64,000 nucleotides of DNA from Roseiflexus sp. (GCA_017743475.1 JAGHYV010000002.1:13844-77843); one strand, 5' to 3'. Shown: positions 18,821 to 41,046, counted from the first letter of the stretch. Made by a program: numbers and translations. The notes: generated from the letters alone by a model not told the origin.

Positions 18821-20104
18821 CTAAGATGCTTGCTCTGCGATCAACTGGTTATAGAGCGCTTCGAGATGAACGGTCAGCGTTTCAGCCCGATACCGATCAA
18901 AGACTTCGGCGCGTCCGGCAGCAGCAAGTCGCGTTCCCAGGGCGCGGTCATTCAGCAGACGTATAAGCGCCTCTGCCAGTGCTTCGACATGACCGTAGGG
19001 AACCAGTAAACCAGTTCGTTCGTGGCTGATAACTTCGTTACCTGCCATCACGTCGGTGGTCACTACCGGCGCTCCGGCAGCCATAGCCTCAATCAGCGGT
19101 ATGCCAAAGCCTTCATATCGGCTTGGCGCCGCTACGACGGCTGCATTGTGCAGCAGGCGAATCTTTTCATGCTCGCTTACCGGTCCGACGATATCCAGAT
19201 GATTGGTTACGCCGCCGACTGCTGCAATGTGCCGCAGGTCGGCTTCACCGTTACGGTTGTGACTCACGAACATAAAACGGGCTGTCGGCGCTTCACGCAA
19301 CACGAGCGGCATTGCACGCGCCAGCAAGTCGTATCCCTTGCGTGGCACTAGCTGCCCAATAAAAAGCACTAGAGGAGGTCGAGAAGCGACAGGAGGCGGA
19401 GTATGACTGTAGGCGTCCAGATCCACTGCATTTGGCAGCACGCTTATTCGCTTCGGATTGACTCCCAAACGGATAAGAAGGTCGCGCTCGGCATGCGATA
19501 GCGCTATCACACGATCTACACGAAGCAGGGGAGCGTGAATGAGATAGTTGCGCACTGTGCGGTGTGGATGAGCGCCGCGCGCTATCCGAAGCGCCAGCTG
19601 GCGTAGTGTCGTCACTATATTATCGTAGCGAAGCGGCGCTTCCAGAGGACGTTCCCGATCTGATACGAGGTCGCCGTCGTGCAGGAGTCCATGGATGGTA
19701 AGGACAGTGGGAATACGCAGTTGCGATGCAGCCAGCACCGTTTGAAAGCCAAGGAGATTGCGCAGGTGATGCAGGTGAATAATGTCGGGCCGATCTGTTC
19801 CAACCAAGCGTAGCAGCGACTCAGGACCGAAGAAACCCAGGGTTTTCACTCGATGCACGGGTACCGGACCGGGTAACCACTCATGACGGCGTGACTGTCC
19901 AGGATAGCGTCGGTCGAGGTACTCGTGGGCGACGACAGCATGCCCGCGTGCCGCCAGTGTTCGCGCCTGAAGTTGTTCGGGGCGGCCGGGAAACGCAGGA
20001 TCAAAACCATAGGTAGTGACGATCAAAATTCGCATACGGGTTTGTGGTGCAGTGACTGTTCGTTCCAGTTTGATCGGGATAAAGTATGGCGTCCCAGTCT
20101 GCAC
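18821..20104 (-). CDS. Glycosyltransferase family 4
   Basis: MRILIV (alternative start 20035), FIGQLVPRKG and EGFGIPLIEAMAAGAPVV. Confidence 0.9.
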   Translation of the reverse strand: MQTGTPYFIPIKLERTVTAPQTRMRILIVTTYGFDPAFPGRPEQLQARTLAARGHAVVAHEYLDRRYPGQSRRHEWLPGPVPVHRVKTLGFFGPESLLRLVGTDRPDIIHLHHLRNLLGFQTVLAASQLRIPTVLTIHGLLHDGDLVSDRERPLEAPLRYDNIVTTLRQLALRIARGAHPHRTVRNYLIHAPLLRVDRVIALSHAERDLLIRLGVNPKRISVLPNAVDLDAYSHTPPPVASRPPLVLFIGQLVPRKGYDLLARAMPLVLREAPTARFMFVSHNRNGEADLRHIAAVGGVTNHLDIVGPVSEHEKIRLLHNAAVVAAPSRYEGFGIPLIEAMAAGAPVVTTDVMAGNEVISHERTGLLVPYGHVEALAEALIRLLNDRALGTRLAAAGRAEVFDRYRAETLTVHLEALYNQLIAEQAS

Positions 20105-20110
20105 ACCCTG

Positions 20111-21250
20111 TCAGCTTTGTATTGTTGATGCACGATTGACATGTGTTCCGCGTACTGCCGCGTGATACGCCGCTTCTACCCGATCCGCCACAGCAGACCA
20201 CGCGAATTGTGCCGCCCAACCGGGTGCAGCGTCAGCCATAGCTCGTCGGCGCTCCGGGTCGTCGATCAGGGAACGCACGGCTGCTGCCAGTGCAGCCGGA
20301 TCGCGTGGCGGCACAAGAAGTCCAGTGCGCCCTTCGTCGATCACTTCGGGGAAACCGCCAAAGCGTGATGCGACGACCGGCAGCCCGCACGCCTGCGCTT
20401 CAATCAGCCCAATGCCGAACGTCTCGCTAGCAAAGCTGGTGGCGAGCAGGAGATCGGCTGCGGCGTAGATTGACGGGAGACGTTCACGTGGCAATGCTCC
20501 CAGGAAGCGTACCCGCTTTGCCAGTCCCAATTCCTGCGCCAGTCGCTCCAGGTCGGCGCGGGTTTCGCCATCACCAACGATCATCAGATGCGCCCGCGGA
20601 ATCTCCCGTAAGGCGTGGAGAGCAACATCTACCCCCTTCCAGGGTTGCAGCCGACCGACCCACAGAAGGAGCGGCGTTCCGTCGGTGCGAACGATGTCTG
20701 GATCAGGCGCTGTTGGGCGAAACAGGCTTGTGTCGATTCCGTTGAAGACGACGGTCGGCTCAAACCCGTAGCGTGCTGCTACGGTACGGGCATTGAAACG
20801 ACTGCACGATACTGCGGCATCGACACGTGGTGCGAGCAGTGTATCGCCCGGATAGAAATCCTCGCCGTGGCATCCCAGCACCACCCGCGCTCCGCCGAAG
20901 CGTCGCGCCAGGAGCGCCGGACCCAGGTCATACGGTTTTTGAATGTGGATGATGTCATATCCGCCAGCGATCAGTTCCGGCAGGGCGGCGATCGCAAGAG
21001 ACAGACGTTCGAGCAGTTTAGCTTCGGCATATGCGCGGTGGAGCAACGGGAGCGCCTGAAACCGGTAGCGATTAATAAACGGGAACATCAGCACCCGAAC
21101 CCCCGGCGCCAGCTCACGACGTTTCCCCACTCCGCCGATGATCGTCACTGCGTGCCCGCGACGCGCCAGTTCGCGCCCCAGGTCCCATACAAAACTTTCC
21201 ACACCGCCGAACCTGGTCGTCGTTGTCAAATTGTAGAGTGCAATGCGCAT
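20111..21250 (-). CDS. Glycosyltransferase family 4
   Basis: MRIALYNLTTTTRFGGVE, WVGRLQPWKG and ETFGIGLIEAQACGLPVV. Confidence 0.9.
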   Translation of the reverse strand: MRIALYNLTTTTRFGGVESFVWDLGRELARRGHAVTIIGGVGKRRELAPGVRVLMFPFINRYRFQALPLLHRAYAEAKLLERLSLAIAALPELIAGGYDIIHIQKPYDLGPALLARRFGGARVVLGCHGEDFYPGDTLLAPRVDAAVSCSRFNARTVAARYGFEPTVVFNGIDTSLFRPTAPDPDIVRTDGTPLLLWVGRLQPWKGVDVALHALREIPRAHLMIVGDGETRADLERLAQELGLAKRVRFLGALPRERLPSIYAAADLLLATSFASETFGIGLIEAQACGLPVVASRFGGFPEVIDEGRTGLLVPPRDPAALAAAVRSLIDDPERRRAMADAAPGWAAQFAWSAVADRVEAAYHAAVRGTHVNRASTIQS

Positions 21251-21276
21251 AGCTCGACCACCAGCGCCATCAGCCA

Positions 21277-22950
21277 TTACAAGACACGCAGCAACCAGCG
21301 CTGCCCCGGCAGACGCATCTTTGCCAGTTGTTCGCGATCCTGCGGTTCCAGGCCGCCGGTTGCGCGCAGTGCTGCAATGAATGCGCCTGCGCCCAGCAAC
21401 GCCACACATACCAGTAACCCCGCTTCACGCAACCGCAGAAGAATGCTGGCACGTGGCGGAAGTTCCGGCAACAGTGCCGCCATACCTGCCACCAGGAGCG
21501 CCATCACGCCGCTCGCTAACAAGACGCGTAACGTAAACCACCAGGGCCAGCGTAATCCCAGCAACCGATATCCGCTTGCCGTTGTCCACAACCCTGCCAG
21601 GACGCGCGCCAGCCCAAACGCCAGTGCCACGCCAACAATGCCCAGTAGCGGCGACAGCAGGACCAGCAGCGGAACGACTGAGAGTGTCAGCAGGCGCGAA
21701 ATCACAATGACGCGCAACTTTTCGTACACGATCAGCGCGTTGTGCGCCGTAGTCAACATACTTTCCAGAAAGAGACAGGGCACGAGCACCCATACCAACG
21801 ACGCTGCATCGACATACTGCGGCGTCAGCACTGTCAGCACAGGGCGCGCCAGCAGGATCAATCCCACGGCACCGGGGATGAGCAGCAGCACCTGGAGCCG
21901 CGCCAGCGATTGATATGCCCCCAGAAGCGTCCCGCCCTCACCTGCGCGCACCCTGGTGAACAGTGGCACCTGCACCCCGACCATCGGCGTATACAGGTAG
22001 CCGAGCACCATCCCAACCACCGACGCGCCAGCCCAGAGCAGGGCGACATCGCTGATGTCATTCGCCAGAAACACTGCAAACGACTTACTTGCCAGAAAGT
22101 CGGTCACCGTCATGAGGAATGAAACTGCGCAGTAGCGCACGAATCCGGACGGCAGGGCATTGGCAAGCGGCAGGTCAAGCGCTTCCCGTCCGTCATCCGA
22201 CCAGGAGCGGATATCGGATTTCCACAAACGGTACACGTTCCATCCGGCCAGCGCAACGGCGATCGCGGGGGCAACGAACATGGCGATCAGCACGCCGATG
22301 ATTGCGCTACGGTCAGGATCGGGAGTCATCCGGCTGATGAGAATGGCCGCTGCACTCAATAACGGCGGCAACAAACCCGCTGCCAGCGCCACACTGTTCC
22401 AGGCGCGCTGCTCGAAAAAACTGTTCAGGTACGCCATCAGCATGTCGTAGCAGATGCCTAGGAAGAGCATGATCAGGATGGTGAGCATGATGAGCCAGCC
22501 AGACTCATCGATGAACCGTACAAGAGTCATCTGCTCGACAGGTGGAATGCGCTTATCGGCGAGCACCTTGCCCTGCAACTCGTTAATGTAGCGGTCGTAC
22601 CCTGCGATCAATCCGGCGAACACGATCATCAGGACGACAACCTGTGCTGCAAGTACAGCAGAGATCAACCGCAACACCGCGCGCGGTCCGCCGGTGCGGT
22701 TGGTCTCTGGGATGTACTTCGGCAGTGCACGAGTTGTTCCCAGGTCGATCCAGGTGCCCAGTCCATTACTGGCGCCGCTCACCAGCGCCAGCAAGCCGTA
22801 ACTGGTCAACGGCAGCACCGTTAGTTTGAGCAGCGTTGCGACAATTTCGGCGATCATGCGCAGCGGCACAAACACCGCGTTCCATACAACGGCGCGCGAT
22901 ACCTGGCTGGCGAGTGAAGGAGCGCGACTGGTTGTCGGTTCGGTTGCCAT
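21277..22950 (-). CDS. Wzx-like flippase / polysaccharide biosynthesis protein
   Basis: ~14 TM segments, YGLLAL...DLGTTRALPKYIPE, located inside a glycosylation locus. Confidence 0.75.
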   Translation of the reverse strand: MATEPTTSRAPSLASQVSRAVVWNAVFVPLRMIAEIVATLLKLTVLPLTSYGLLALVSGASNGLGTWIDLGTTRALPKYIPETNRTGGPRAVLRLISAVLAAQVVVLMIVFAGLIAGYDRYINELQGKVLADKRIPPVEQMTLVRFIDESGWLIMLTILIMLFLGICYDMLMAYLNSFFEQRAWNSVALAAGLLPPLLSAAAILISRMTPDPDRSAIIGVLIAMFVAPAIAVALAGWNVYRLWKSDIRSWSDDGREALDLPLANALPSGFVRYCAVSFLMTVTDFLASKSFAVFLANDISDVALLWAGASVVGMVLGYLYTPMVGVQVPLFTRVRAGEGGTLLGAYQSLARLQVLLLIPGAVGLILLARPVLTVLTPQYVDAASLVWVLVPCLFLESMLTTAHNALIVYEKLRVIVISRLLTLSVVPLLVLLSPLLGIVGVALAFGLARVLAGLWTTASGYRLLGLRWPWWFTLRVLLASGVMALLVAGMAALLPELPPRASILLRLREAGLLVCVALLGAGAFIAALRATGGLEPQDREQLAKMRLPGQRWLLRVL

Positions 22951-23801
22951 TACTGCTGTTTGACCAGTCCCAGTTCAAACATGCCGGTGTACCAGTCGCG
23001 TTGCAGGCGATACGCAGCACGCTCCAACCCCAGGCGACGCAGTACGGCTCGCGCGATGCGGTGCGTCGGTTTCGGGCTGTAGAGCGTTCCTTGTAGCAGT
23101 TCTTCTTCGCGGAGATCGCGCACGCTGAATCCGCAGCGCAATGCAAGCGTAGCGAATGTCTGGTACTCGAAATAGTGCATGTCACTCAACCGCTGCATAT
23201 CACGAAACGCAGCGCCCTGCTTGCTGCGCCCGCAGCGTGCGATCAACCATTCGGCAAGCGGACGCGGCATCCAGTTGATCCCCGGCATATGGTAGTGCGG
23301 ATCGATCCAGGCTCGTCGGTTGATCACCGTTATCAGCGCCACTCCGCCAGGACGCAACACCCGCGCAATCTCGCGCAATACCTGTTCCGGCGACTGGACA
23401 TGCTCAATGACATCCCAGCATACCACGGCATCGAATGCTGCATCAGGCAATGGCAACGACTCACCCGCGGCGTTGATAACCGGCAGGTGCAGATGGTAAC
23501 GCGCCGCGCGCAGCATCATGATCCGACAGTAGGCTGGATGATATTCGCTGGCGATGACCTTTGCGCCACGCAGGGCTGCTGCAACCGCAAAGCCGCCCAT
23601 GCCCGCACCGAGATCGAGCAATCGTACTCCATCGACCCGTCCGGCAATCTGTTCCAGTCGCGCAAGTCGTTCGCTCTGATACGCTTCCTGATTGATGCGC
23701 CGCTCGCGCCAGCGCGCAAAGTCGCGCCGCCAGCGCATATGTTGCAGCCAGGGATCAATCGCCTGCTCGAGTTCAGTTGGTGCAGCAGGTGGTTGGGTCA
23801 T
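22950..23801 (-). CDS. Class I SAM-dependent methyltransferase
   Basis: LLDLGAGMGG, AAGESLPLPDAAFD and VIEHV...LRPGG. Confidence 0.88.
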   Translation of the reverse strand: MTQPPAAPTELEQAIDPWLQHMRWRRDFARWRERRINQEAYQSERLARLEQIAGRVDGVRLLDLGAGMGGFAVAAALRGAKVIASEYHPAYCRIMMLRAARYHLHLPVINAAGESLPLPDAAFDAVVCWDVIEHVQSPEQVLREIARVLRPGGVALITVINRRAWIDPHYHMPGINWMPRPLAEWLIARCGRSKQGAAFRDMQRLSDMHYFEYQTFATLALRCGFSVRDLREEELLQGTLYSPKPTHRIARAVLRRLGLERAAYRLQRDWYTGMFELGLVKQQ

Positions 23802-25975
23802 TATCGTTTGGATTCCAACACATAGTCGGCAATGCGGACCTTCAACGCTGCAATGCTCAACTCACGCCGGGATTGCGGGTCAAACGTCGTCGGCGCGTGC
23901 AGGCGCAATTGGGTCTGTCCCGGCGGCACGGTCAATCCTGTGCGATAGGTGCGCACCGGGCGCTGCACGTCCCAGTGCGCGATCAGGCGCTGATCATGCC
24001 ACAGTTCTACCGGGCGCGGCGTCTCGTAAGACGCCAGGGTCAACGCCAATGTCATATGGATTGGCGTATCATACGGGTTGACCAGCCAGAGCGTGTTGTC
24101 GGCGCTGCCCCAGCGGTGCAGACCGTTATCGTTGCGCTCTACGCTGTCCCATCCTTTGCCTGCATAAACGAAGGGACGGCAGGCGTTGGCGAACAGGGGC
24201 AGTTCGTACCAGCGATACTGCGCATCCTCATACTCTGGTGTCGGCACGTGCCCGATCAACATCCTGAGCGTCTCCGCGACCTGTTCCTGCTCACGCGCCG
24301 TTGTCAGGTCGGTGCGCACTACCACGTGGCGCACCGGCGCGAAACACTGCATCGCTCTGAGCGTGGACGGATCGAGCGGTACAACATCTTGCTGCAATGC
24401 TCGCATCGTCCCGATAGTGTACAACAGCGGCATGTTAAAGCTGTCGTATGCCGGTCGCCGCGCGATGAACCCGCCGATGATCGGTTGACCATGCACCATC
24501 TGACTCCGTAATGTGCGGCTCGTTTCGAGCACATCGAGCGGCAGGTCGGCGACGGCGCCGGGGCGCGCTGCAATTTGTTCATAAACTGCCGGGCGCTCCA
24601 ACGGCAGGAAGACGCGCTCTGGCGGGAGCCAGAGTTCGAACAACCCTGCCATCACTGCCCCTGCGATTGGCAGCATGCGCCAGGCATCTGGCGTCCCCTG
24701 GCGCAACTGCGCCAGCCCCTGTGCCGCTGCTATGCTCATCACCATTAGCACCGGCGCGATAAACAGCGCTGGCTTGCGCGCCGTCCCAAAGAGCGGAAGC
24801 CGATCAAGCAGCGCATATGGCATCGGGATGCCCGTATCCTTCCCCAGCACGTGCAAACCGGGACCCATCGCCAGCACCCAGAGCACGATGGCTGTGAGTG
24901 CCAGGTGCCGCTCGCGCCGCCAGACGGTTCGTGCGCCGAGAATCGCCAGCGCCATCAGGGTCCATCCCGCCGGAACGTACCAGACGCTCGGAGTAAAGTG
25001 TTCGGCTATCGGACGCATCCACTGCTCGACCTGCGCTCCCCACAGCGGGTTGTACACATTCGGAAAGAATAATCCGAACAGGTCGACCGACGAGTTGTAG
25101 ACATATAGTTCCCGGATGGCATCGCGCGTCTGGTGACCTATCGGTAATACGTCACGCCGCATAAGCATCCCGGCGAGAAACGGCGCCAGCAGGATCAGCG
25201 TTCCCATCGCAAACAGTGCATAACGGCGGGCGAGCATCCGTCGCTCACGAACCGCTGCGAACCGTGCAGCCATCCATACAATCGTCAGCACGCCGCAGAT
25301 CGACGCCCAGTACCAGTCGGAAAGCACGACCAGTGCGGCGATTGCCGCAGCGCACGCAATGCGCCAGCGCTCCCCGCCGCGATCCAGCAGCGCCAGGGCG
25401 TAGATATAGAACGGGATCCAGTGCAGGCTGAACAGGTTAAGGTGGCTGTTCTGCAACTGTGCGATGTGGAACGGTCCAAGCGTAACCAGCACACCGCACG
25501 CCAGCGCCTCCCAGAATCCGCGCACGTAGTGATAGGTCAGCAGAAAGACGCCAAACCCGGTCAGCGCAAAACCCAGCAGCACCGCCGTGTTAAACGCTGC
25601 GACCGGACCCGCCAGCAGATAGATCGGCAGCGTAAGCACCGCATTTGGCGCGCCCAGCGTTTGCACATACAACTGTACGCCGTCCGGGTAGAAGAGCAGG
25701 TCGGTCCAGAACGGGTTGATGCCGTTCAGGATCGCCTCGCTCACCCACCAGAGATGCCACAGATGCAATCCAGCTTCTTCGCTGCCAGCAAAGTCGAATC
25801 GCCCTGGAGCGCCGTCAATCCCGCCGAACAGAAGTCGGTCGAAGTGCAACGCCAGGGGCCAGGTGACAATCAGCGCCAGCAGCACGTAGCATCCGAGCGC
25901 CAGCGCATAGATGGCGGCGATGCGGCTGCTGGAAGGAGCCGCCCGCTCAGCAGACGAGCGCGTCGACCGCTTCAT
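23801..25975 (-). CDS. YfhO-like GT-C membrane protein with C-terminal GxGW..E..RW module
   Basis: WHLWWV, LFYPDG, GPFHIA and PIIGGFIARR; paralog of 5216-7357. Confidence 0.75.
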   Translation of the reverse strand: MKRSTRSSAERAAPSSSRIAAIYALALGCYVLLALIVTWPLALHFDRLLFGGIDGAPGRFDFAGSEEAGLHLWHLWWVSEAILNGINPFWTDLLFYPDGVQLYVQTLGAPNAVLTLPIYLLAGPVAAFNTAVLLGFALTGFGVFLLTYHYVRGFWEALACGVLVTLGPFHIAQLQNSHLNLFSLHWIPFYIYALALLDRGGERWRIACAAAIAALVVLSDWYWASICGVLTIVWMAARFAAVRERRMLARRYALFAMGTLILLAPFLAGMLMRRDVLPIGHQTRDAIRELYVYNSSVDLFGLFFPNVYNPLWGAQVEQWMRPIAEHFTPSVWYVPAGWTLMALAILGARTVWRRERHLALTAIVLWVLAMGPGLHVLGKDTGIPMPYALLDRLPLFGTARKPALFIAPVLMVMSIAAAQGLAQLRQGTPDAWRMLPIAGAVMAGLFELWLPPERVFLPLERPAVYEQIAARPGAVADLPLDVLETSRTLRSQMVHGQPIIGGFIARRPAYDSFNMPLLYTIGTMRALQQDVVPLDPSTLRAMQCFAPVRHVVVRTDLTTAREQEQVAETLRMLIGHVPTPEYEDAQYRWYELPLFANACRPFVYAGKGWDSVERNDNGLHRWGSADNTLWLVNPYDTPIHMTLALTLASYETPRPVELWHDQRLIAHWDVQRPVRTYRTGLTVPPGQTQLRLHAPTTFDPQSRRELSIAALKVRIADYVLESKR

Positions 25976-25979
25976 AACG

Positions 25980-27977
25980 TTACTTGCTTTCCGTAGCGGT
26001 GTAATCTGCAAGCTGCACCTTTAATGCCGTAACACTTAACTCACGCTGCGACTGCGGGTCATACGTCGTCGGCGCACGCAGGCGCAATCGGGTTTGTCCC
26101 GGCGGTGCGGTCACTCCTATGCGATAGGTGCGCATTGGGCGCTGCACGTCCCAGCGCGCGATCAGGCGTCGATCGTGCCACAGTTCCACCGGGCGCGCCG
26201 TCTCGTAAGACGCCAGGGTCAACGCCAGCGTCATATGGATTGGCGTATCATACGGGTTGACCAGCCAGAGCGTGTTGTTGGCGCTGCCCCAGCGATAGGC
26301 TAAGGAACCGGCATATTCAGTAGCATACCAGCCTCTTCCCAGCGCAACCCATGGACGGGAGCGATCAAGAGTTGATTCTTCGGGTCGATCTCTGTGGTTG
26401 CATTCTATTACCATGCCTAATTGCCCTGGTGATGTAATACGCTTGCAACTTAAATCAGGATAGCGACTCTCCAGGAGACGCTGTACGTTTGCATCATTTG
26501 TAAACACGTATATGGGCTTCTTTGATCGAATCCAGCTCTTCTTTATTTCTAGGTTAGGAGATTTATGCCATTCTTTTAATGTTTTTCCGTAAATTTCTAA
26601 CCAATAGTCGAGATATCTCGGCATTGCCATCTTATCCCACTTGTGAATTATGAAGATAGATTCCTCCTGGCAAATCTCAGCAAACTCTTTCATAAGTGCG
26701 GATGGTTTATAATAATTCTGGTAATAATTGTTTGTAATGTCTTGTAAATGCCTTCCAGATTCTAAATTTGATAGCAGGATTCTATCGCGATATACTACTG
26801 AAAAAGTAAATGAGATGATAGCGGCAAGAAAGATCAATACGAGAGAAATAGAAGTAAATCGAACATCGAAACCTTTGATTGCTTCTTTCAGAGATATACC
26901 CCCGATCATAGAGAAAGGGATGACTAATGGAATAAATGTTCGGTCAAACGGTTTGTCACCCCTAAGAGCACTCAATAAGAATGGAAGCACCATTAATATC
27001 AGAAGTAGGTAAAATCCACTGTAATCCTGATTTTTATCCCTAAAAATCTTTATAAGTCCATATAATACTGGTAAGAGTAGTAACCATCGTTTTGAGATGA
27101 GATGTCCCAAAAATGCAGGCATAAGTTCTGTTATTGTGCTCAAGTTGGGCATTCCTGATGTTCTTGTCATATTATTGTCGATAACTTTTGGAAGGATAGG
27201 GATATACCAGACTGTAGCGACGGCGATGCCCGACACAACCATGACCGCCAGCTCTATCTCGCGGTTGGATGTTAATCTTCTGTCAGGTTGGGCATATTTA
27301 TTTCTAGACCGCGAAAACAGATACCTCGATAACCAATAAATAAAAATAGGTGCGGTAACGTAGATATTTGATGGTATGGTGTAAAAGAGCAAAGAAGTTA
27401 GTGCCACGACCAAAAACCCACTTATTCTACTTCCACTCCTATAATAATGCAAGTTATAGTATAAGATCATTCCGAGCAGTGTCATGCTCAAAGTATAGCC
27501 TCTGACCTGGACAGTAAAGTTTACAGAAGGCAGGGTTGATCCCAAGATAATAACTGCAAGAAATCCCGCTAACGGATCAAAAAAGTCTCTTACAGTCCTA
27601 TAAACATATACAAACGTCAAAAATGTGTAAAACAACATTAGTATGCGAATTTTCCAGGGTTCTCTGAGCAGGTCGAAATCATCGATGCCAAGCCCGTACA
27701 GGTAAAGGTGGTTTAGTATGTTGGCGAAAATATGATTATTTGGTGCGCGATAGTCGGTTACAATCGTTGAGATCGGAACAAACACAAAATGATGTAGTGT
27801 ATAAATCTCGTCATACCAGAAATCGAGATTGATGTATGCAGCAACGACATAAATAAGCCATGGTAGCGCAGCAGCGCATGCTATCAGCGTCCACGCAAAC
27901 TCTGAGCGAGAAGACAAACTCTTTGCAGTTTTGTCTGATAATGCGAGTAGGGCGGACATGCCTGTATGCGAATTCAT
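25980..27977 (-). CDS. Chimeric GT-C (PMT/ArnT-like) membrane protein: low-GC body plus duplicated native C-terminal module
   Basis: DFWYDEIYT, NNHIFA and VQVRGYTL motifs. Sampled lines 26521 and 27001 are 32% and 30% GC. The last ~105 codons closely match those of 23801-25975. Confidence 0.8.
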   Translation of the reverse strand: MNSHTGMSALLALSDKTAKSLSSRSEFAWTLIACAAALPWLIYVVAAYINLDFWYDEIYTLHHFVFVPISTIVTDYRAPNNHIFANILNHLYLYGLGIDDFDLLREPWKIRILMLFYTFLTFVYVYRTVRDFFDPLAGFLAVIILGSTLPSVNFTVQVRGYTLSMTLLGMILYYNLHYYRSGSRISGFLVVALTSLLFYTIPSNIYVTAPIFIYWLSRYLFSRSRNKYAQPDRRLTSNREIELAVMVVSGIAVATVWYIPILPKVIDNNMTRTSGMPNLSTITELMPAFLGHLISKRWLLLLPVLYGLIKIFRDKNQDYSGFYLLLILMVLPFLLSALRGDKPFDRTFIPLVIPFSMIGGISLKEAIKGFDVRFTSISLVLIFLAAIISFTFSVVYRDRILLSNLESGRHLQDITNNYYQNYYKPSALMKEFAEICQEESIFIIHKWDKMAMPRYLDYWLEIYGKTLKEWHKSPNLEIKKSWIRSKKPIYVFTNDANVQRLLESRYPDLSCKRITSPGQLGMVIECNHRDRPEESTLDRSRPWVALGRGWYATEYAGSLAYRWGSANNTLWLVNPYDTPIHMTLALTLASYETARPVELWHDRRLIARWDVQRPMRTYRIGVTAPPGQTRLRLRAPTTYDPQSQRELSVTALKVQLADYTATESK

Positions 27978-28024
27978 CGAGGTCTTCTTTTCAAAACAAT
28001 GCTGTATGCGATATTCTCTGGCGC

Positions 28025-30124
28025 CTACGGCGTGACCTGCACGTCAGTAATTGCCACTCCTCCGTACCACGGCGCCATCTCCAGGTCGAGCAGTCCTGTT
28101 GCACTTGTGAACCACACTGTCAGTTCGGGATTGTGCTCACATTCGCGTATACCTGATAGGGAAATATGCATCTCTTGCGGCGCTCCGGTTAGCGTGATCC
28201 GCTCATGGATATTCCAGTTATCAAGCGAGATGTCAACCATACGCCCGGCAGGTCCGTGCATACGCACCACCAGCGTCCCGCATCCGCCGCGCACCCGCAC
28301 TCTTCCCTCTCCCAATGTCCAGCGCCCAACGGTGAGATCAGGAGTGGCAGGCGCGAACCCGGCGTAGAACCCGAGCGCAGCAGGATCGCCGGGAATGACG
28401 CGCGATGGAGCGCTCATGTGCTGCGCATTCCATGCCCATTCCAGCAGATCGTTGCCGGTGCGCCAGTAGCCGTCGATAGCGCGGAGCGCCGCTGCCGCTT
28501 CCGCCGGATTGTCGAGCACAGCAGCAGTGATCGCGCGCATTGCCTGTGCATACAGACTGCGGCGTTCCATTGACGCTGCCAGACGGTAGAGTTCCAGCGC
28601 CCGCTCATTATCGCCCTGCGCCAGGTAGAGATCGGCAAGGTCGATCAGGCGCAGCGGGTTGTCCGGGTTGGCGTCGTATGCCAGCGTCAACAGCGATTCA
28701 GCCCGTCGCAGATCGCCCGCGTCGAGCGCAGCCCGCCCTGGTGCAGCATACCATATGCCTGCACTCCACGGAATGTACTGTGTGCTGACGATCAGCGCCA
28801 GGAACACCAGCGATCCACCCAGCGCCGCGTAACTGCGCCGGTCACGCAGGAAGCGAGCAGGTTGCCGCCAGAGCGCCGGTAGCCTGATCAGCGCATATGC
28901 TGCGAATGGCAGAACTGTCGCCACAATCGGCAGGCGCAGGCGGGGATGTCCAATTGTCAGCGCTGCCAGCAGGGTCGCCAGCCCGATCCACAGCAACGTC
29001 GGCGTGGCGCGCACGGGTTGCGGTATAAAGCAGAACCCGCCGATTGCCAGCAACATTAGTACAATGTACTGCACATCCGCCAGTATGGTCAGCTCCAGCC
29101 GATATTCACCCGCATTCTGTACGATTGGTGCGCCGCGTGAGTCGATGGAAATGACATCGCCAACCGCATAACTGCGCGTTTGAAGCGCGTAGAGCGATGC
29201 GATTTTGAAGCGCATACGGGTGAGAAACCGCACTGGATCGTCACGAATGATATCCCACGCCATGTGCAGGGCAAGCGCCTGCCGGTCGGCAAGGTTCGGA
29301 ACCGCCGCCAGGCGTGCCTCGCCTGCTGCCTGTTCGGCATCACTGCGCACGGTGCCGTACCACATACTGATGCCGCCGTTCGTGTCGCTTACGATCAGGC
29401 GACTATGCACTAGATAATTCCGCCCCACCCACGGTCCAATGACCAGCATTGCGCCCAGCAATAGGAGGATCGCCGGATGATGCCAGCGCCATACCCGATA
29501 CCCGTCGGACTGAGCACGCCATGCTATCAATGCCGCCGCTAGCGGAATCAGATACACGCCAACCGCGCGCGTCAGTGCTGCAAGCGCCAGGATCACGCCA
29601 GCGCCAAACGCCATTCGCCCGCTTTTGCGATCAATCGCGTCGTTGAGCGCCGTCAGACCGGCAACCAGAAGAGTTATGAACAGTGCCTCGGCGTAGAGCG
29701 AACTGGCATACGATGCCAGCGGAATAAAGAGCGCTGCCAGCAACGCTGTGACCAGACCAGTGATACGTCCGAAGAGATGCGCGCCGAATGTGTAGAACGC
29801 CAGCACCCCGACACTCAAGATGCACGCCTGAAGCAGCAACGCACCGGCGACGTTCATCCCGGCTGCTGGCAACAGGAGCGCCAGAAATGCTGGATAGACC
29901 GGCGGACGCAGCCACTTCCCGGTATCGTGGTAGCCGCCATGCAGGATATGGATGGCTGCGCGATAGTACTCTTCCGGATCACCAGGCGGCACAGCGCCAG
30001 AGCGCGCCTGGATCCACCAGAACCAGAGACGCATGGCCAGCGCCAGCACAATCACGGCAACCAGAGCGATCCGGCTGGCAGCCAGCAGAGCGCGCGCTTT
30101 CCGCAGCGTTTGATGGTCGAGCAT
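28025..30124 (-). CDS. ArnT/PMT-like GT-C membrane glycosyltransferase with TPR-like region
   Basis: GDPEEYY, RPPVYP, LYAEALF and PWVGRNY; TPR-like AESLLTLAYDANPDNP...LADLYLAQGD. Confidence 0.78.
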   Translation of the reverse strand: MLDHQTLRKARALLAASRIALVAVIVLALAMRLWFWWIQARSGAVPPGDPEEYYRAAIHILHGGYHDTGKWLRPPVYPAFLALLLPAAGMNVAGALLLQACILSVGVLAFYTFGAHLFGRITGLVTALLAALFIPLASYASSLYAEALFITLLVAGLTALNDAIDRKSGRMAFGAGVILALAALTRAVGVYLIPLAAALIAWRAQSDGYRVWRWHHPAILLLLGAMLVIGPWVGRNYLVHSRLIVSDTNGGISMWYGTVRSDAEQAAGEARLAAVPNLADRQALALHMAWDIIRDDPVRFLTRMRFKIASLYALQTRSYAVGDVISIDSRGAPIVQNAGEYRLELTILADVQYIVLMLLAIGGFCFIPQPVRATPTLLWIGLATLLAALTIGHPRLRLPIVATVLPFAAYALIRLPALWRQPARFLRDRRSYAALGGSLVFLALIVSTQYIPWSAGIWYAAPGRAALDAGDLRRAESLLTLAYDANPDNPLRLIDLADLYLAQGDNERALELYRLAASMERRSLYAQAMRAITAAVLDNPAEAAAALRAIDGYWRTGNDLLEWAWNAQHMSAPSRVIPGDPAALGFYAGFAPATPDLTVGRWTLGEGRVRVRGGCGTLVVRMHGPAGRMVDISLDNWNIHERITLTGAPQEMHISLSGIRECEHNPELTVWFTSATGLLDLEMAPWYGGVAITDVQVTP

Positions 30125-30131
30125 CGTACTG

Positions 30132-31763
30132 TTATGGATTGTCCGGCGTCTGACGCATCACCAGCAGATCCTGTTCTTCGGCAATCACCTGCCAGCGATC
30201 TGACTCACGCAGGCGCTGAACGAAATCGCGGTGACGATCGGTGCGCAATGCTGCGGCGCGTGTATCGATGAAGAGGTACTCAGCGCGCTCGATCGGCGGA
30301 AACGACTCATCGGGCGGCACGTAATAGATGAAACGGCGCGGCATCATCCGTGGCGCGAGAAACGACGTGACTCCCAGCGATGCATCAGGCGGGATCAATG
30401 CTGCCAGGCGCTCCATCGCTGCCAGTCGTTCAGGGGTCTCTCGGTAGAGCACCGTTGTCGCCACCGGATTGCGATATGCCAGATTGGTTGCTGCCACAAT
30501 GCCAATCACGCCGATCATCAGCACATATGCTGTACGTGATGCGCGATTGTTGCGCCGAATCACACTGACGCCGCGCTGGTCTATCACTGTGCTTCTTGCC
30601 TGCCACCACCCCCACAACCGCGCAGCGCCGATGATGGCAGCAAGTATCAGACCAGGAATAACGAGCGCCTGATACTGTTCACGTACGGTGATCTGAAACG
30701 GGCGCAGCGAGAGCAGGTTCATCGCCAGCGGCGGCGCCGCCAGCAGCGCAACATCGGGTGCAAGCAACGGCAGCAATGCCAGCGGTAGCAGCATAAGGAA
30801 CAGATATTCCACTTTGTCCGGCGTTAGCATCAGGCGCAGCACATCAACAGGACGACTGACAATCGTCCAGAGAATAGCGCCTGCGCTGTCGCCGAGATGC
30901 GAATAGTAGGCAAGCTGCGGGCTTTTACCGGGCCAGATTTCGGTATAATCGCCCTCTGTCACCCCGCCAATGTCCCCTTCTCGCATCTGATAGTCTGGGC
31001 GATAGAACGACGGCACAACGACACTTGTCGAGAGATGGAACCATGCCAGTCCGATGAGAACCGGCGGCAGCACCCAGCGCCACCCGACACGCCACAGCGC
31101 TGCCAGGAAGCCAAACATGGTCACCACCAGCGACACATCGGTGCGGGTTGTCAGCGCGAGTGCCAGCAATCCCACGTATGCGACCCAATCACGTGCATTC
31201 GCCCGTCCATTCGCAGCACGCTGCAAAAAAAAGAATGCGCCCAGCAGCGCCGGAATTGCCAGCGTGCGCGGTTGCCATGGAGCGCTCATCGTCACAAACC
31301 AGAGCGAGGGGTAGAGCAGATACACGCCTGCCCATCCCAGCCCGGCAAGACGCGAACCGCCAAAGCGATCCCGCGCAATCCCATACACTGGCAGCGCACC
31401 GAGCGCCATAAAAAGCGCCTGAAAAAAATTGAGCGTCAACGCTGAGGGAAACAGCGCATAGAACGGAACGACCAGCAGGATTGCCGGAATGAAATCCATC
31501 CCCCACAGATGATCGGTGTGGCGATAGTGTGATATTTCAAGAAAGCGTCCCTGCGTCGTATTCCAGATCGACTGCTGATAGTCGATCTGATCATATCCCT
31601 GCGCCCAATGGAGATACTTGAATGTCAGACCAAAGAAAAGAATGGCGATGTACAGCGCAATGAGCGCCGCCAGCGTCAGACCTGCCCGTCGCTCGATCGT
31701 TGCGAGTAGCTGCACAATGCCTGTTTTGAAATATTCGTGGTGTGATGCAAGCGCTCGTGTCAT
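30132..31763 (-). CDS. DUF2079-family membrane protein (GT-C-like)
   Basis: YDQIDYQQSIWNTTQGRF, DFIPAILL and ITVREQY. Confidence 0.75.
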   Translation of the reverse strand: MTRALASHHEYFKTGIVQLLATIERRAGLTLAALIALYIAILFFGLTFKYLHWAQGYDQIDYQQSIWNTTQGRFLEISHYRHTDHLWGMDFIPAILLVVPFYALFPSALTLNFFQALFMALGALPVYGIARDRFGGSRLAGLGWAGVYLLYPSLWFVTMSAPWQPRTLAIPALLGAFFFLQRAANGRANARDWVAYVGLLALALTTRTDVSLVVTMFGFLAALWRVGWRWVLPPVLIGLAWFHLSTSVVVPSFYRPDYQMREGDIGGVTEGDYTEIWPGKSPQLAYYSHLGDSAGAILWTIVSRPVDVLRLMLTPDKVEYLFLMLLPLALLPLLAPDVALLAAPPLAMNLLSLRPFQITVREQYQALVIPGLILAAIIGAARLWGWWQARSTVIDQRGVSVIRRNNRASRTAYVLMIGVIGIVAATNLAYRNPVATTVLYRETPERLAAMERLAALIPPDASLGVTSFLAPRMMPRRFIYYVPPDESFPPIERAEYLFIDTRAAALRTDRHRDFVQRLRESDRWQVIAEEQDLLVMRQTPDNP

Positions 31764-31882
31764 ATGCTCTGAACTCTCGCCTGTTCCTCGCCTTACACTG
31801 TTCACGCCTCGCGCTGCCCCCTCGATGGACCCCGCTGCCGGTACGGGCGCAGCAGCGTTGCGCCCCGATACATCGTCGTCCC

Positions 31883-31975
31883 ACGTTCAACGTGCAATGT
31901 TCAACCTTCAACCCCTCGCGCCTTCATCCCCTCGCGCCTCGTCCCCTCGCGCCTTTCGCCTCCGCCTCGCGCCTC
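31883..31975. repeat. Heptamer tandem (ACGTTCA-type x4) followed by CCCCTCGCGCCT repeats
   Basis: acgttca acgtgca atgttca accttca, then three CCCCTCGCGCCT units; intergenic. Confidence 0.7.
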
Positions 31976-31981
31976 ATATCC

Positions 31982-34327
31982 TCACACTACCGGCGACCGC
32001 AGGATGCGAATCACCCAGAGATCGAGCGCCGTCACCAGCGTAAACAGGTAGATTGTCGCAACCAGCGCTTTTCCCCACCACCCGCGTCGCCAAAAGCGCT
32101 CAGCGTAGATCGCCCAGCAGAGACAAATGGCAGGCACGATATAGAACAACTGCTTGTCAACCATCGATACCCGATATCCCACCAGCATGAACAGGGTTCC
32201 GACCGAAAACCACGCTGCCAGCATCACCCACAGCAGCGGGCGCTTGCGCAACGCAACAAAACCCGGAACGACAAAAGCGAGCGGAATGAGCAAACCGTAG
32301 TATAAAAAGCCGTCCGGTCGCATATCGTACCGCAGGTGCCGCCAGAAAGAGAAAAGGTAATCACTAAACGGCGGACGCACCACACCGACGCTTTCTGGAC
32401 CACTTGTTGCCAGACTCAGCATATATGGTATGGTTCGCTCGACAATCGGTGAAATATACTGGCCATAGTAGATCAGCGTTGCCGCTCCCAGCGCCACGAC
32501 CAGTGAGAGTGCGACAGGGCGAAGCGGCTTTCGGTCGATCCTCACTGGTGCGATGAGCGCGATTCCAATGAAGCAGACGATGAACACAATGTGGAAGACT
32601 GCCATCACCGTGTAGAACAGGAGTGTAATCACCGTTAGCACGGTAAGCAGAGCAAACGGACCCCATTCGTGGAGACGGGGATACAGTGCGACCATGACCG
32701 TCGAGGTGACCAGTGTCCACCACATGCCGGATGTCGTCGGGATGTTGCCCCACGAATGCAATAGAAAGGTAACCGGTGTGACAGCATAGATCAGCGCTGC
32801 GAAGATCGTCGCGCGATGGCTCAACCTCGCCTTGCGCGCCAGAAGCGCGATCAGAAAGACGCGACTGTTGTCGAGCAGGGCGCTGAAAAGGTTCGCGCTG
32901 GTTTCGAGCGACCATGGAAAGAGTGCAAAAACCGTCGCAAAGAGGTGAAAAAATGGTGAATAGGGAATGACAGGGCGATTCGGTCCCCACTCATTGATCG
33001 GCATTACCGACTCTGAGAACGCGCCGGGAAGATACATTTCCGACCAGTGTCCATTGAGGATCCAGCGTACGCGATCCATGTGCCAGCCGACGTCGATAGC
33101 GCGCATATAGGGGAAGAGCAATCCGCCGCCTTTCAGCCAGAGACCGACGAGAAAGATAACCAGCAGTGCATATCGCACTGCCGGTTCAAGAGGGGCGTCG
33201 AGTTTACGGAAGATCCAGTCCACACCGCGATCTGCCACAGGCGTCAGCACAAGGGTGAAAAGCATAAACCATGCCAGCGGCTCCAGGAACAGTCCAGTCG
33301 GGTAGCGGTACGCTATCAGCGCCCACGCGCCGATCAGCGCCACCATGATGCTCGCACTGCATGCAATCCATGCCGGAACCCGCGCTACGCGAAGGGCGCC
33401 GTACATGCTGGCGACAATAGTCAGTGCTGGCAACACTGCACTCCACGGCGGCAGCGTCACACCAGGCGCGCGGGTGAGCGGCGTTACTGCCACACGCTCT
33501 AGCGACACCCCTAGCGGGCGCGGATCGCGGTACGGATTCGCCGAGATGTCCAGATTCAGGTTTCCGTTGTTGAGGGTGCGCGCTGGCGCGATCAACAGAT
33601 AGCGGCGCATACCCGGCGTCTCAGGCAGGGCAGCGATCATTTCTCCATTGGCGAAGACGCGTGCATCAACTGCGCCGCCATCTGGATGCGCTACCAGTGC
33701 CCGCAGTTCTACGCGCCAATCGCCGTGTCCTAATGCAGGAAGTGTGATCGTCGAGCGTTCGCTTGTCCAGCGATAGGTCAGCGCTCTGGCGATTTCAGCG
33801 TCGATCAGGCGCACTGGCGGTACTTCGAGCGTGCGGTCCGGGATCGCTTCGATGCGCAATCGCATACCGCCAGACAGATCCATGTCGTCGGGCAGGAGCA
33901 GGCGAAAACGCCGGGCACCGCCGCGATCATTGAGGGTGTCAACTCGACGGTCGTTGGCATAGACAGCAATCAGACGGCGTGGATGAACTGTATCGGGCTG
34001 CCAGTCATCCAATGTTAGCGTCACCATGCGTGCATCTTCACGCAATGGAGTCGCAACAACAACCTCGTTTGAACCGGGAAGCGCAGCAACCCGCATGAGA
34101 ACCGTCTGTGCGGTAAACTCACGCCCGTGCATATCGCGAAGGTAGGGATAGTCAAGACGGGTGCCAATATCGAGCGTTACCTGCGGTTGCGCAGTGTAGG
34201 CGACCATCAGTGCGATCAGGACGCCAAGCGCTGTCACTGCCAGTGGCAACCCTGGTTGCCAGCCATGCGGATTGATGAACGCTCTTGACCAGGCGACCGG
34301 AGCGCGTGTTGCTTTCGGAGCAGCCAA
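31982..34327 (-). CDS. Large membrane protein (extracellular beta modules plus GT-C-like TM region)
   Basis: N-terminal TM, a domain with YRWT and RPLGV motifs, then ~13 TM segments with RAIDVGWH. Confidence 0.7.
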   Translation of the reverse strand: MAAPKATRAPVAWSRAFINPHGWQPGLPLAVTALGVLIALMVAYTAQPQVTLDIGTRLDYPYLRDMHGREFTAQTVLMRVAALPGSNEVVVATPLREDARMVTLTLDDWQPDTVHPRRLIAVYANDRRVDTLNDRGGARRFRLLLPDDMDLSGGMRLRIEAIPDRTLEVPPVRLIDAEIARALTYRWTSERSTITLPALGHGDWRVELRALVAHPDGGAVDARVFANGEMIAALPETPGMRRYLLIAPARTLNNGNLNLDISANPYRDPRPLGVSLERVAVTPLTRAPGVTLPPWSAVLPALTIVASMYGALRVARVPAWIACSASIMVALIGAWALIAYRYPTGLFLEPLAWFMLFTLVLTPVADRGVDWIFRKLDAPLEPAVRYALLVIFLVGLWLKGGGLLFPYMRAIDVGWHMDRVRWILNGHWSEMYLPGAFSESVMPINEWGPNRPVIPYSPFFHLFATVFALFPWSLETSANLFSALLDNSRVFLIALLARKARLSHRATIFAALIYAVTPVTFLLHSWGNIPTTSGMWWTLVTSTVMVALYPRLHEWGPFALLTVLTVITLLFYTVMAVFHIVFIVCFIGIALIAPVRIDRKPLRPVALSLVVALGAATLIYYGQYISPIVERTIPYMLSLATSGPESVGVVRPPFSDYLFSFWRHLRYDMRPDGFLYYGLLIPLAFVVPGFVALRKRPLLWVMLAAWFSVGTLFMLVGYRVSMVDKQLFYIVPAICLCWAIYAERFWRRGWWGKALVATIYLFTLVTALDLWVIRILRSPVV

Positions 34328-34409
34328 ACCTGACGACCTTATACCATACCAGCGAAATAATCCAGCGCATTATAGCACAAGCAGAATGGGGTATACTTTG
34401 AACTGTCTG

Positions 34410-34493
34410 GTTCTCAGTTCTCGGTTCCTGGTTCTCAGTTCTCGGTTTCTGGTTCTCGGTTCTCGGTTCCCGGTTCTTGATTTTTGGTTCTCA
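34410..34493 (+). repeat. 12 x 7-bp tandem repeat (GTTCTCR) filling the GT4 5' UTR
   Basis: gttctca gttctcg gttcctg gttctca gttctcg gtttctg gttctcg gttctcg gttcccg gttcttg atttttg gttctca, then C-ATG at 34495; TATACT at 34392-34397. Confidence 0.9.
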
Positions 34494-34494
34494 C

Positions 34495-35574
34495 ATGAAT
34501 CTAGTCTGGCATTCGTCATTCGCATCGCTTACCGGCTACAGCGGTTCCTCTCTGGCGTTTGTCCTTGGTCTCGATGCGCGCGGTGTCGCGGTTCGCCCAC
34601 TCTACCTATATGGCGCTGATCGCGATGAGCATATTATGATGGGTGGCGTTCACCCGCGCATCGCCATGTTGCAACGCGCTCCACTTCGTCTTGATGTGCC
34701 ACAGGTCGTATACGCGCCGGGGGATCGTTTCTCGAAGAACAGCGGGCGCTACCGCATCGGTTTTACCATGCTCGAGTTTGACCGTTTGCCGCAGGAATGG
34801 GTTCAGCAAGCCAATCAGATGGACGAAGTCTGGACCCCAACTGTCTGGGGGGCACACGTGTTTGCCGCCAGTGGCGTGACCCGTCCCATCCATGTTGTTC
34901 CCCTAGGTGTCGACCTAGCGTGTTTTGCACCGGGTTCTCCCCGCACCCATCTGACCGACCGCGTCGTCTTTTTGTCGGTGTTCGAGTGGAGCCGCCGCAA
35001 AGGATGGGATGTACTGATCCGCGCTTACCGCGCTGCCTTTCGTCCTAATGATCCGGTGGTGCTGGTGCTGAAGATCGACTGTCGCGCCCCTGATGAGAAC
35101 CCGGTGCGTGAGATCGCGGCGCTGTTGCCGTCGCCCTCGCCGCCGGTGACACTGCTCTACAACCGCACGCTGAATGCGCAGCGTATGGCTGAACTGTACC
35201 GCAGCGCCGACTGCTTCGTGCTGCCCACACGCGGCGAAGGATGGGGGATGCCGATCCTCGAAGCGATGGCGTGTGGCATTCCTGCAATTGCAACCGATTG
35301 GAGCGGACCAACAGCGTTTTTGAACCACGAGAACGGCTACCCGCTGCCGATCCGTGGTCTGGTTCCCGCAGATGCTGGCGGGTTCTACGGTCGCAGCGCG
35401 CAGTGGGCGGAACCCGACGGCGATGCACTCGTTGAACTGTTACGCCACGTTGCACACCATCCCGAAGAGCGCCGCGCTAAAGGTCAGCGTGCAGCCGCCG
35501 ATGCAGCGCAATGGTCGTGGGAGCGGGCGATCGATATCGTGTATGCACAATTGAACCGCTCCAAACTCTGGTGA
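34495..35574 (+). CDS. Glycosyltransferase family 4
   Basis: MNLVWHS...TGYS, RKGWDVLI and RGEGWGMPILEAMACGIPAI. Confidence 0.9.
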   Translation: MNLVWHSSFASLTGYSGSSLAFVLGLDARGVAVRPLYLYGADRDEHIMMGGVHPRIAMLQRAPLRLDVPQVVYAPGDRFSKNSGRYRIGFTMLEFDRLPQEWVQQANQMDEVWTPTVWGAHVFAASGVTRPIHVVPLGVDLACFAPGSPRTHLTDRVVFLSVFEWSRRKGWDVLIRAYRAAFRPNDPVVLVLKIDCRAPDENPVREIAALLPSPSPPVTLLYNRTLNAQRMAELYRSADCFVLPTRGEGWGMPILEAMACGIPAIATDWSGPTAFLNHENGYPLPIRGLVPADAGGFYGRSAQWAEPDGDALVELLRHVAHHPEERRAKGQRAAADAAQWSWERAIDIVYAQLNRSKLW

Positions 35575-39625: not shown

Positions 39626-39764
39626 ATGTATCAGATATTCTTGTTGCACGCCGCTCTGCAAATGTGACGCAACGTTCAGAACGTTTCTTCTGTAATTGCG
39701 AATAAGCCTCTTTGCTGGCAGGAGTTCCCCAGATGAAAGATGAAAAAAGGTGCACGCTGTGATG

Positions 39765-40988: not shown

Positions 40989-41046
40989 CGCGCTTCCTCC
41001 CGTCGTTTCCGAAAGCCGCATTCGTTTATCTCCCGCTAGATGGCGC

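Follow-up and report, generated by a model that had tools for sequence, protein, structure and literature searches.

A Roseiflexus gene cluster of GT-C-like membrane proteins with a shared carbohydrate-binding-module-like domain, a candidate for envelope glycan assembly

Roseiflexus lives in hot-spring mats as a filamentous anoxygenic phototroph and belongs to the Chloroflexales, whose cell envelope is, to our knowledge, poorly defined both chemically and genetically; full-text literature searches returned no paper on the genetics of Chloroflexales envelope glycans. Here, we analysed a stretch of 64,000 nucleotides from Roseiflexus sp. (contig C188, 13844-77843; referred to as the window, whose own numbering is used for all positions without another prefix), in which the interval 18821-35574 encodes glycosyltransferases, a flippase-like protein, a methyltransferase and five different multi-pass membrane proteins resembling glycosyltransferases of the GT-C fold. 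Several of the latter share a beta-rich domain, which we call the module. Genome-wide searches covered 4.97 Mb in 206 contigs.

The locus and its multi-pass proteins

Nine genes form a single minus-strand operon with the 5' to 3' order GTC781, DUF2079, GTC699, GTC665, GTC736, methyltransferase, MOP-like protein, and two glycosyltransferases of family 4 (GT4). Intergenic gaps are tiny or absent, except for 176 nt between GTC781 and the DUF2079 gene, and a third GT4 is encoded divergently on the plus strand. An earlier note, made from the sequence of the window, had named three GT4s and a methyltransferase in this interval, and Pfam matches bear this out. The genes and their modules, located with a hidden Markov model (HMM), are as follows.

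31982-34327, minus strand: GTC781, first gene of the operon; first transmembrane segment (TM1), two tandem modules, then a multi-pass domain
33782-34117, minus strand: GTC781 module 1, aa 71-182 (module HMM, E 2e-19 and 3.5e-27 for the two copies)
33428-33781, minus strand: GTC781 module 2, aa 183-300 (module HMM)
30132-31805, minus strand: DUF2079 multi-pass protein, 557 aa (PF09852, E 1e-46, whole profile matched)
28025-30124, minus strand: GTC699, PMT_2 domain plus tetratricopeptide repeats (TPR) (PMT_2 34.1 bits against a cut-off of 26.1; TPR_19 E 8e-8)
25980-27977, minus strand: GTC665, GT39/PMT_2-like (PMT_2 E 6e-4, below the cut-off); C-terminal module at 25983-26357
23801-26011, minus strand: GTC736, DUF6311-like, predicted GT-C fold; C-terminal module, aa 614-736, at 23804-24172
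22950-23801, minus strand: class I S-adenosylmethionine (SAM) methyltransferase, 283 aa, paired with GTC736 (Methyltransf_11 E 5e-21)
21277-22950, minus strand: MOP/Wzx-like putative flippase, 557 aa (14 hydrophobic segments; annotations of homologues)
20111-21250 (open reading frame to 21409), minus strand: GT4, about 379 aa (Glycos_transf_1 E 1e-44)
18821-20104, minus strand: GT4, 427 aa, last gene of the operon (Glyco_trans_1_4 E 7e-35; Glyco_transf_4 E 2.5e-20)
34477-35574, plus strand: divergent GT4, 365 aa (Glyco_trans_1_4 E 1.5e-18)

Translation probably starts at the ATG at 25975 in GTC736, at the ATG at 34495 in the divergent GT4 and, judged from the start of the orthologue in Roseiflexus sp. 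RS-1, at M54 (about 21250) in the GT4 of 20111-21409.

All five multi-pass proteins contain 7-12 hydrophobic segments according to a hydropathy scan. The earlier note had described the five as GT-C-like, which stands for GTC699 and the DUF2079 protein by their Pfam matches (DUF2079 is a family that we take to be assigned to the GT-C clan of Pfam), for GTC665 by its sequence motif and for GTC736 by its fold, while GTC781 is weakly linked. GTC736 itself has no Pfam match, some of its homologues carry PF19830, and an AlphaFold2 (AF2) model built from an alignment of 24 homologues is a helical bundle with a mean pLDDT of 85.7. When this model was compared with the Protein Data Bank (PDB) using Foldseek, all 17 matches with E <1e-3 were GT-C enzymes, led by mycobacterial AftD (6w98, E 2e-9) and followed by STT3, DPY19, AglB, PglB, ArnT and AftA. 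As modelled, GTC736 has a GT-C fold. An acidic loop residue, which the earlier note had expected of such enzymes along with the fold, is conserved just past the first core helix in three of the families: position 79 is acidic (E/D) in 24/24 members of the GTC736 family, the pair D56/E57, a 'DE' motif of the PMT type, is invariant among 20 homologues of GTC665, some of whose relatives match PF13231, and D412 is invariant together with H416 in 20/20 sequences of the GTC781 family. Candidate loop acids of GTC699 (DPEEYY) and of the DUF2079 protein (YDQIDY) come from one sequence each.

GTC781 is the least certain member. Neither its own sequence nor 20 family members gave a Pfam match, and its membrane part aligns collinearly with the GTC665 family in a weak hhalign match (probability 55%, E 1e-4); the structurally validated GTC736 reaches a probability of just 29% against the same GTC665 family. 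That GTC781 is a GT-C enzyme is thus plausible but unproven. Its family was found in 101 of 151 Chloroflexia genomes. Sequence searches against PDB chains yielded nothing useful for GTC736, GTC781, GTC665 and the DUF2079 protein, and for GTC699 the sole matches were TPR proteins. The GT-Cs of the locus would presumably use sugar donors linked to lipid phosphate.

A paralogue of GTC736, A740 (30% identity across 740 aa), lies outside the locus beside a second methyltransferase gene, so that the further methyltransferase/GT-C pair placed at 5.2-8.3 kb in the earlier note is real.

5216-7438, minus strand: A740, 740 aa; C-terminal module at about 5219-5605 (module match E 2e-52; PMT_2 E 1.4e-3)
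7431-8366, minus strand: class I SAM methyltransferase, 311 aa, overlapping the start of A740 (Methyltransf_11 E 3.6e-14)

A shared beta module and its distribution

The module comprises about 120 aa with the consensus G[FW]..E .. [FY]RW[ST] .. LP ... WR.Y.lL.P ... D.R.LGV, in which E14, R22 and R105 are nearly invariant among 25 diverged copies. In a six-frame translation of the window, the motif pattern matches three times only, at 5584, 24160 and 26339. Three of the five GT-Cs of the locus carry the module, GTC736 and GTC665 at the C-terminus and GTC781 as two N-terminal copies; when the families of GTC781 and GTC736 are aligned with hhalign (probability 94%), the alignment is confined to the module. 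The statement of the earlier note that several proteins end in a related beta module thus holds for GTC736, GTC665 and A740, although the motif LGEGWQPLE belongs to A740 and lies outside the locus, and the N-terminal copies of GTC781 had been missed. Its proposal that each GT-C uses the module was too broad, as GTC699 has TPR repeats instead and the DUF2079 protein nothing comparable. A faint likeness by eye at the C-terminus of GTC699 (GRWTLGEG...) was rejected as a module copy, the module HMM giving E values of just 11-32, and no module was found in the DUF2079 protein.

To which fold does this domain belong? An AF2 model computed from the 25 copies (pLDDT 95.7) is all-beta with 12 strands, and its PDB fold neighbours in Foldseek are mainly the carbohydrate-binding modules (CBMs) of families CBM6, CBM35, CBM36, CBM4 and CBM29 and the carbohydrate-binding domain of BcsB, with E values of 3e-5 to 7e-4 over all neighbours (5e-5 to 7e-4 for these carbohydrate-binding domains) and TM-scores of 0.45-0.65. 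The Foldseek classification of what the earlier note had called a beta module is hence a CBM-like beta-sandwich; the modelled domain is a jelly-roll or galactose-binding-like sandwich of the type used for glycan binding, and would itself be expected to bind glycans. It resembles CBM6, CBM35, CBM36, CBM4 and the BcsB domain in being an all-beta sandwich of similar length, but unlike described CBMs it belongs to no Pfam or NCBIfam family and is attached to synthases rather than hydrolases. The 25 copies gave no Pfam family, with stray single matches only (e.g. CBM60, E 0.01), no NCBIfam match and no PDB sequence match. DUF7532 was considered since it matched one metagenomic module-bearing protein weakly; it matches nothing in the genome, and the module is therefore not a member of that family.

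The fold is generic, however, and the top Foldseek match is the tip of a lambda phage tail fibre, with haemagglutinin, Cry toxin and lectin-like domains also listed. In addition, proteins elsewhere join it to a sulfatase or radical-SAM domain or to other partners. One could therefore regard it as a structural spacer or as a domain for oligomerisation or wall anchoring rather than a glycan binder. We consider this improbable: most of the significant matches among those listed are CBMs, the module sits on GT-Cs where solved relatives have CBMs, and the near-invariance of E14, R22 and R105 suggests a conserved site and not a mere spacer.

The features described so far could also serve the glycosylation of proteins, in which GT-Cs resembling PMTs (protein O-mannosyltransferases) or oligosaccharyltransferases would attach glycans to proteins that are secreted or exposed at the surface, such as those of the S-layer, pili or sheath, and would then lengthen them; protein or glycoprotein acceptors would be chosen by the module together with the TPR repeats. 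GTC699 combines PMT_2 with TPR, GTC665 has the PMT-type DE motif, and GTC736 also matches STT3, AglB, PglB and the C-mannosyltransferase DPY19. TPR-bearing enzymes of the TMTC type exist among protein O-mannosyltransferases, and GTC699 is like them in this respect. Likeness to PMT (GT39) and PMT_2 (GT83, ArnT-like) enzymes further includes the PMT_2 matches of GTC699 and, below threshold, of GTC665, as well as the position of the DE motif after TM1. Unlike PMTs, the Roseiflexus proteins have no MIR domain, GTC665 stays under the Pfam cut-off and the added module resembles CBMs. An operon with five different GT-C cores exceeds by far what the known protein glycosylation systems need, the module resembles CBMs that bind polysaccharides, and no gene for an acceptor protein is evident in the locus. 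We thus regard protein glycosylation as unlikely to be the function of the locus.

To follow the module through the genome, its HMM was iterated over all open reading frames until convergence. The resulting survey, a step the earlier note had put forward, yielded 28 copies in 27 open reading frames, on six or more GT-C families. The membrane domains fused to it are PMT, PMT_2 (with or without TPR), GT87, PIG-V-type Mannosyl_trans2, DUF6311-like and 781-type, with weaker partner matches to Glyco_transf_22 and PTPS_related. Within these proteins, the module either follows TM1 directly or forms the C-terminus, and both places lie outside the cytoplasm in GT-C enzymes of solved structure. In a tree, the 27 full-length modules of this genome sort by GT-C family, indicating that most fusions are old; GTC665 is the exception, its module nesting with that of its neighbour GTC736. 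Grouping by locus, which would have argued for shared acceptors, was rejected as the tree follows GT-C family instead. At C180:1020-7865, three tandem PMT_2 plus TPR GT-C genes end in modules and thus show the architecture of GTC699 with a detectable module added.

Beyond this genome, when 1.84 billion representative proteins (clusters at 50% identity) were searched with the module profile, 10,830 clusters matched at E <=1e-3 and 2,545 at E <=1e-10. Some proteins in public data hold up to eight tandem modules, sulfatase, radical-SAM and other non-GT-C partners occur, and the ten top representatives are mostly unnamed metagenome entries. The module is strongly expanded in Chloroflexales, with 10 to at least 21 copies in each of the 19 other genomes sampled (19/19), whereas the remaining Chloroflexota hold it in 25 of 181 genomes with one to four copies each.

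Transport, missing parts and conservation

The 557-aa MOP-like protein shows 14 hydrophobic segments in a crude hydropathy scan and has no Pfam match of its own, even at E values up to 10. In source annotations, its homologues are named as O-antigen/teichoic acid export protein or Polysacc_synt_C, and one of 16 homologues, 62% identical, matches PF01943 at E 2.7e-7. No PDB sequence match was obtained, and an hhalign comparison with the MurJ of the window found nothing, a result that is uninformative since the MOP-like alignment is low in diversity. Reading the protein as MOP/Wzx-like is reasonable through this transitive evidence. The Wzx of the earlier note accordingly persists as a 14-segment, MOP-like protein inside the operon, its assignment being indirect.

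Its neighbour, the methyltransferase, belongs to a recurrent arrangement. All three DUF6311-like GT-C paralogues of the genome, GTC736, A740 and C139:31573-33672, adjoin a SAM methyltransferase, which suggests a functional couple; the three methyltransferases share just 27-29% identity with one another. Possibly, the partner methyltransferase methylates a lipid-linked sugar that the DUF6311-like GT-C then transfers. Around distant homologues on three contigs the pairing was not seen, and it is thus established for this genome and close relatives only. The region C139:30751-41162 resembles the locus: a methyltransferase gene is accompanied by genes for a DUF6311-like GT-C whose module is C-terminal, a GT-C whose module is N-terminal and a PMT_2 protein, along with a lectin-like DUF1080 protein and an 824-aa secreted protein. 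A further region, C56:197489-203821, resembles it with a methyltransferase, a GT4, a priming enzyme of the Bac_transf type and a GT-C with N-terminal module.

The presence of a MOP-like protein and GT4s would also suit an ordinary Wzx/Wzy locus for exopolysaccharide or an O-antigen-type glycan, whose polymerase and co-polymerase went unrecognised among the large membrane proteins; GTC781, which has no family assignment, could be another polytopic enzyme. Profile searches found no match to Wzy_C, Bac_transf, Glycos_transf_4 or ABC2_membrane on contig C188, in agreement with the earlier note, which had recognised no Wzy, Wzz or Wzc and had named a Wzy polymerase as evidence that would overturn its reading. 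Elsewhere the genome has seven Wzy_C, seven Bac_transf and three Glycos_transf_4 genes, and three of the seven Wzy_C genes adjoin Bac_transf genes, so that ordinary Wzx/Wzy loci are both present and detectable. With neither a polymerase nor a priming enzyme on the contig, and with GTC736, GTC665 and GTC699 being GT-C-like and not Wzy-like, we judge an ordinary Wzx/Wzy locus to be highly improbable. Pfam searches likewise gave no GT2 among the genes of the locus, and GtrA_DPMS_TM had no match in the whole genome.

About 4 kb from the locus, one further export component is encoded.

39765-41138: orphan Wzt ATPase (ABC_tran plus Wzt_C), with no Wzm on the contig

Its presence raises the question of whether the product is a polymer exported by an ABC transporter: the GT4s would build the chain in the cytoplasm, the methyltransferase would cap it as in E. 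coli O8, Wzt would read the cap and export the polymer, and the GT-Cs would decorate it afterwards. Wzt is kept beside the locus in RS-1 and in G095, a second genome of the genus, the methyltransferase is located inside the operon, and GT-C decoration after ABC export is documented (PMC11127046). The contig holds no ABC-2 (Wzm) permease, however, a histidine-kinase gene on the other strand separates Wzt from the operon, the operon has a MOP-like transporter of its own, and the 283-aa methyltransferase contains no extra domains of the WbdD kind. Taken together, an ABC-exported polymer seems very unlikely to us. In the region 38531-41138, Wzt is followed by a gene for a lipoprotein that matches no Pfam family but has an NEP motif like that of glycoside hydrolases; both genes are kept in RS-1 and G095, and the histidine-kinase gene separates both from the locus. 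Genes for tyrosine recombinases of the phage-integrase family (42110-43123 and 47982-48971) flank a region with an SqdB-like epimerase downstream of the locus.

Gene order at the locus is shared with Roseiflexus sp. RS-1 (CP000686, 1042155-1065249), with G095 and with the Roseiflexus metagenome-assembled genomes GCA_052744275.1 and GCA_049971255.1. Homologues of proteins of the window bear the names Roseiflexus sp. or Roseiflexaceae, which together with the 95% identity of the putative flippase to that of RS-1 places the organism near this strain. Identity to RS-1 amounts to 87-95% for all locus genes but the terminal GT4, including 94.5% from residue 54 for the GT4 of 20111-21250, 94.6% for the MOP-like protein and 94% for the divergent GT4. 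By contrast, the terminal GT4 (18821-20104) is just 39% identical to the RS-1 gene in the same position and hence is a replaced, strain-variable allele at the operon end. Metatranscriptome contigs from hot-spring mats, 90-99% identical, span about 20.2 to 36 kb, indicating that the locus or close relatives of it are transcribed in situ; contig depth in these data is not readable as an expression level. Contig coverage is lower at the terminal GT4.

GTC665 has a mosaic composition: its membrane part (about 26300-27977) has a GC content of 0.33-0.45 in a background of 0.57-0.62, and its C-terminal module has native GC. Counterparts occur in L001 (7485-9488), L002 (4983-6980) and L042 (8100-12010), and the low GC of the membrane part is kept in RS-1 (0.38), L001 and L042 despite a protein identity of 47-67%. 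L042 additionally contains a degraded second low-GC copy of GTC665 with its own module directly upstream of the intact gene, the two modules being identical in 108 of 112 residues. The modules of GTC665 and GTC736 share 72% protein identity and 88-91% DNA identity, visible in the window as a direct repeat of 293 nt.

23823-24115: repeat copy 1, DNA of the GTC736 module (88% identity to copy 2; 91% over 257 nt)
26002-26294: repeat copy 2, DNA of the GTC665 module (88% identity to copy 1; 91% over 257 nt)

The two module DNAs are 91% identical in the window and in RS-1, but 76% in L001, and module orthologues between lineages share 75-80% DNA identity. This pattern indicates that the adjacent copies have undergone gene conversion in the lineage of the window and RS-1.

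Two intergenic regions contain repeats. An array of GGTTCTCR heptamers (34385-34489) separates a TATACT box from the ATG of the divergent GT4, with about 12-13 units in the window, 5 in L001 and 4 in G095; as double-heptamer sites occur at 65 or more places in the genome, it represents a dispersed simple repeat of variable copy number. The region between GTC781 and the DUF2079 gene (31806-31981) holds G-rich repeats of the type GAGGCGCGAGGGGA followed by a GC-rich hairpin, and its core is found at 5 places in the genome, is duplicated in RS-1 and reaches very high depth in metatranscriptome contigs.

A candidate two-compartment pathway for an envelope glycan

What, then, might such a locus build? 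An assembly line of the mycobacterial type best fits a locus that combines GT4s and five GT-C cores with a methyltransferase and a flippase-like protein and has no polymerase or priming enzyme. On balance, we lean towards the reading that the locus builds, in two compartments, a heteroglycan of the cell envelope that is either a lipoglycan or a polysaccharide linked to the wall. At the inner face of the membrane, the GT4s would assemble a short primer on a lipid from nucleotide sugars, the SAM methyltransferase would O-methylate a sugar of this primer or of a lipid-linked donor, and the MOP-type protein would flip the lipid-linked species. Outside the membrane, the five GT-Cs would draw on polyprenyl-phosphate sugars to extend and branch the primer, every one of them contributing its own residue or linkage, and the presumably outward-facing module on GTC736, GTC665 and GTC781 would hold the growing glycan, keeping the enzyme on its acceptor. 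A glycolipid may carry the primer, as in the case of PimA/PimB, and this would account for the lack of a phosphoglycosyltransferase. We infer the topology, the lipid-linked donors, the methyl-sugar product, glycan binding and acceptor recognition by the module, and the nature of the acceptor, whether protein, sheath or lipid.

Arabinogalactan as well as lipomannan and lipoarabinomannan of mycobacteria and corynebacteria are made by the GT4s PimA/PimB and then by the GT-Cs PimE, MptA/B, EmbA/B/C and AftA-D. The Roseiflexus locus resembles this wall assembly in its proposed combination of cytoplasmic GT4 steps with many different GT-Cs outside the membrane, in beta-sandwich modules of the carbohydrate-binding kind carried by several GT-Cs, in AftD being the best fold match of GTC736, and in the GT87- and PMT-type proteins of the genome that bear the module. 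It differs in that the module has no sequence relation to the CBMs of the Emb proteins and AftD, which are not among its top 50 fold matches, in that no synthase for decaprenyl-phosphoryl arabinose (DPA) or polyprenyl-phosphomannose (PPM) was identified for the locus, in having its genes grouped with those of a MOP-type transporter and a methyltransferase in a single operon, and in its host, a Chloroflexales phototroph. A C-terminal CBM of EmbC was proposed to hold the acceptor glycan (PMC3044687), and the carbohydrate-binding modules of AftD (PDB 6W98) have a proposed acceptor role (bioRxiv 10.1101/2019.12.22.885152). In the GtrA/GtrB/GT-C systems, GT136 ORF12 of Citrobacter youngae is a GT-C with an extra beta-rich extracytoplasmic domain that modifies a glycan on the far side of the membrane using a polyprenyl-phosphate sugar (PMC11127046). 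The likeness to these systems lies in that extra domain; the Roseiflexus locus has no GtrB-type GT2, the genome no GtrA, and five GT-Cs stand alongside GT4s in place of one, which looks like building and not mere decoration.

Several points weigh against two-compartment assembly. The similarity of the module to CBMs is moderate (TM-score 0.45-0.65) and its fold is common. GTC781 is tied to GT-C enzymes by an hhalign probability of 55%, and the DUF2079 protein by the presumed placing of its family in the GT-C clan. The MOP assignment is transitive, the protein having no Pfam, PDB or MurJ match of its own, the substrate of the methyltransferase could be other than a sugar, and the TPR repeats of GTC699 would suit a protein acceptor. 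Moreover, the locus contains no GT2-type synthase of polyprenyl-phosphate sugars, no priming enzyme and no GtrA-type flippase. Protein glycosylation and ABC-transporter export nevertheless account for fewer of the facts than the assembly line does.

GT-Cs with a CBM-like domain and pathways leading from GT4s to GT-Cs are already established (Emb, AftD, PimE, GT136 ORF12), and since the design is known from mycobacteria, the surprise is limited. New are the operon, in which five GT-C cores accompany a MOP-like protein and a methyltransferase but no polymerase or priming enzyme, the host lineage, and a module family that is uncatalogued and has expanded strongly in Chloroflexales. A bolder picture, possible in our view though rather doubtful, would have the main envelope glycan of Chloroflexales made largely outside the membrane by a mycobacteria-like relay of GT-Cs. 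Acceptor specificity would be set by the module, which would constitute a new family of carbohydrate-binding domains. Through homology of the module DNA, foreign catalytic cassettes of low GC would be exchanged in front of it, as in GTC665, so that glycans would vary from strain to strain. Methylated lipid-linked sugars would be both made and transferred by the methyltransferase/DUF6311-like pairs.

The locus and the 10 to at least 21 module copies per Chloroflexales genome thus provide concrete candidate genes for envelope glycans in this order. Naming the module family would improve the annotation of thousands of 'hypothetical' membrane proteins, and isolated modules would offer, via binding, a handle on what the GT-C enzymes act upon.

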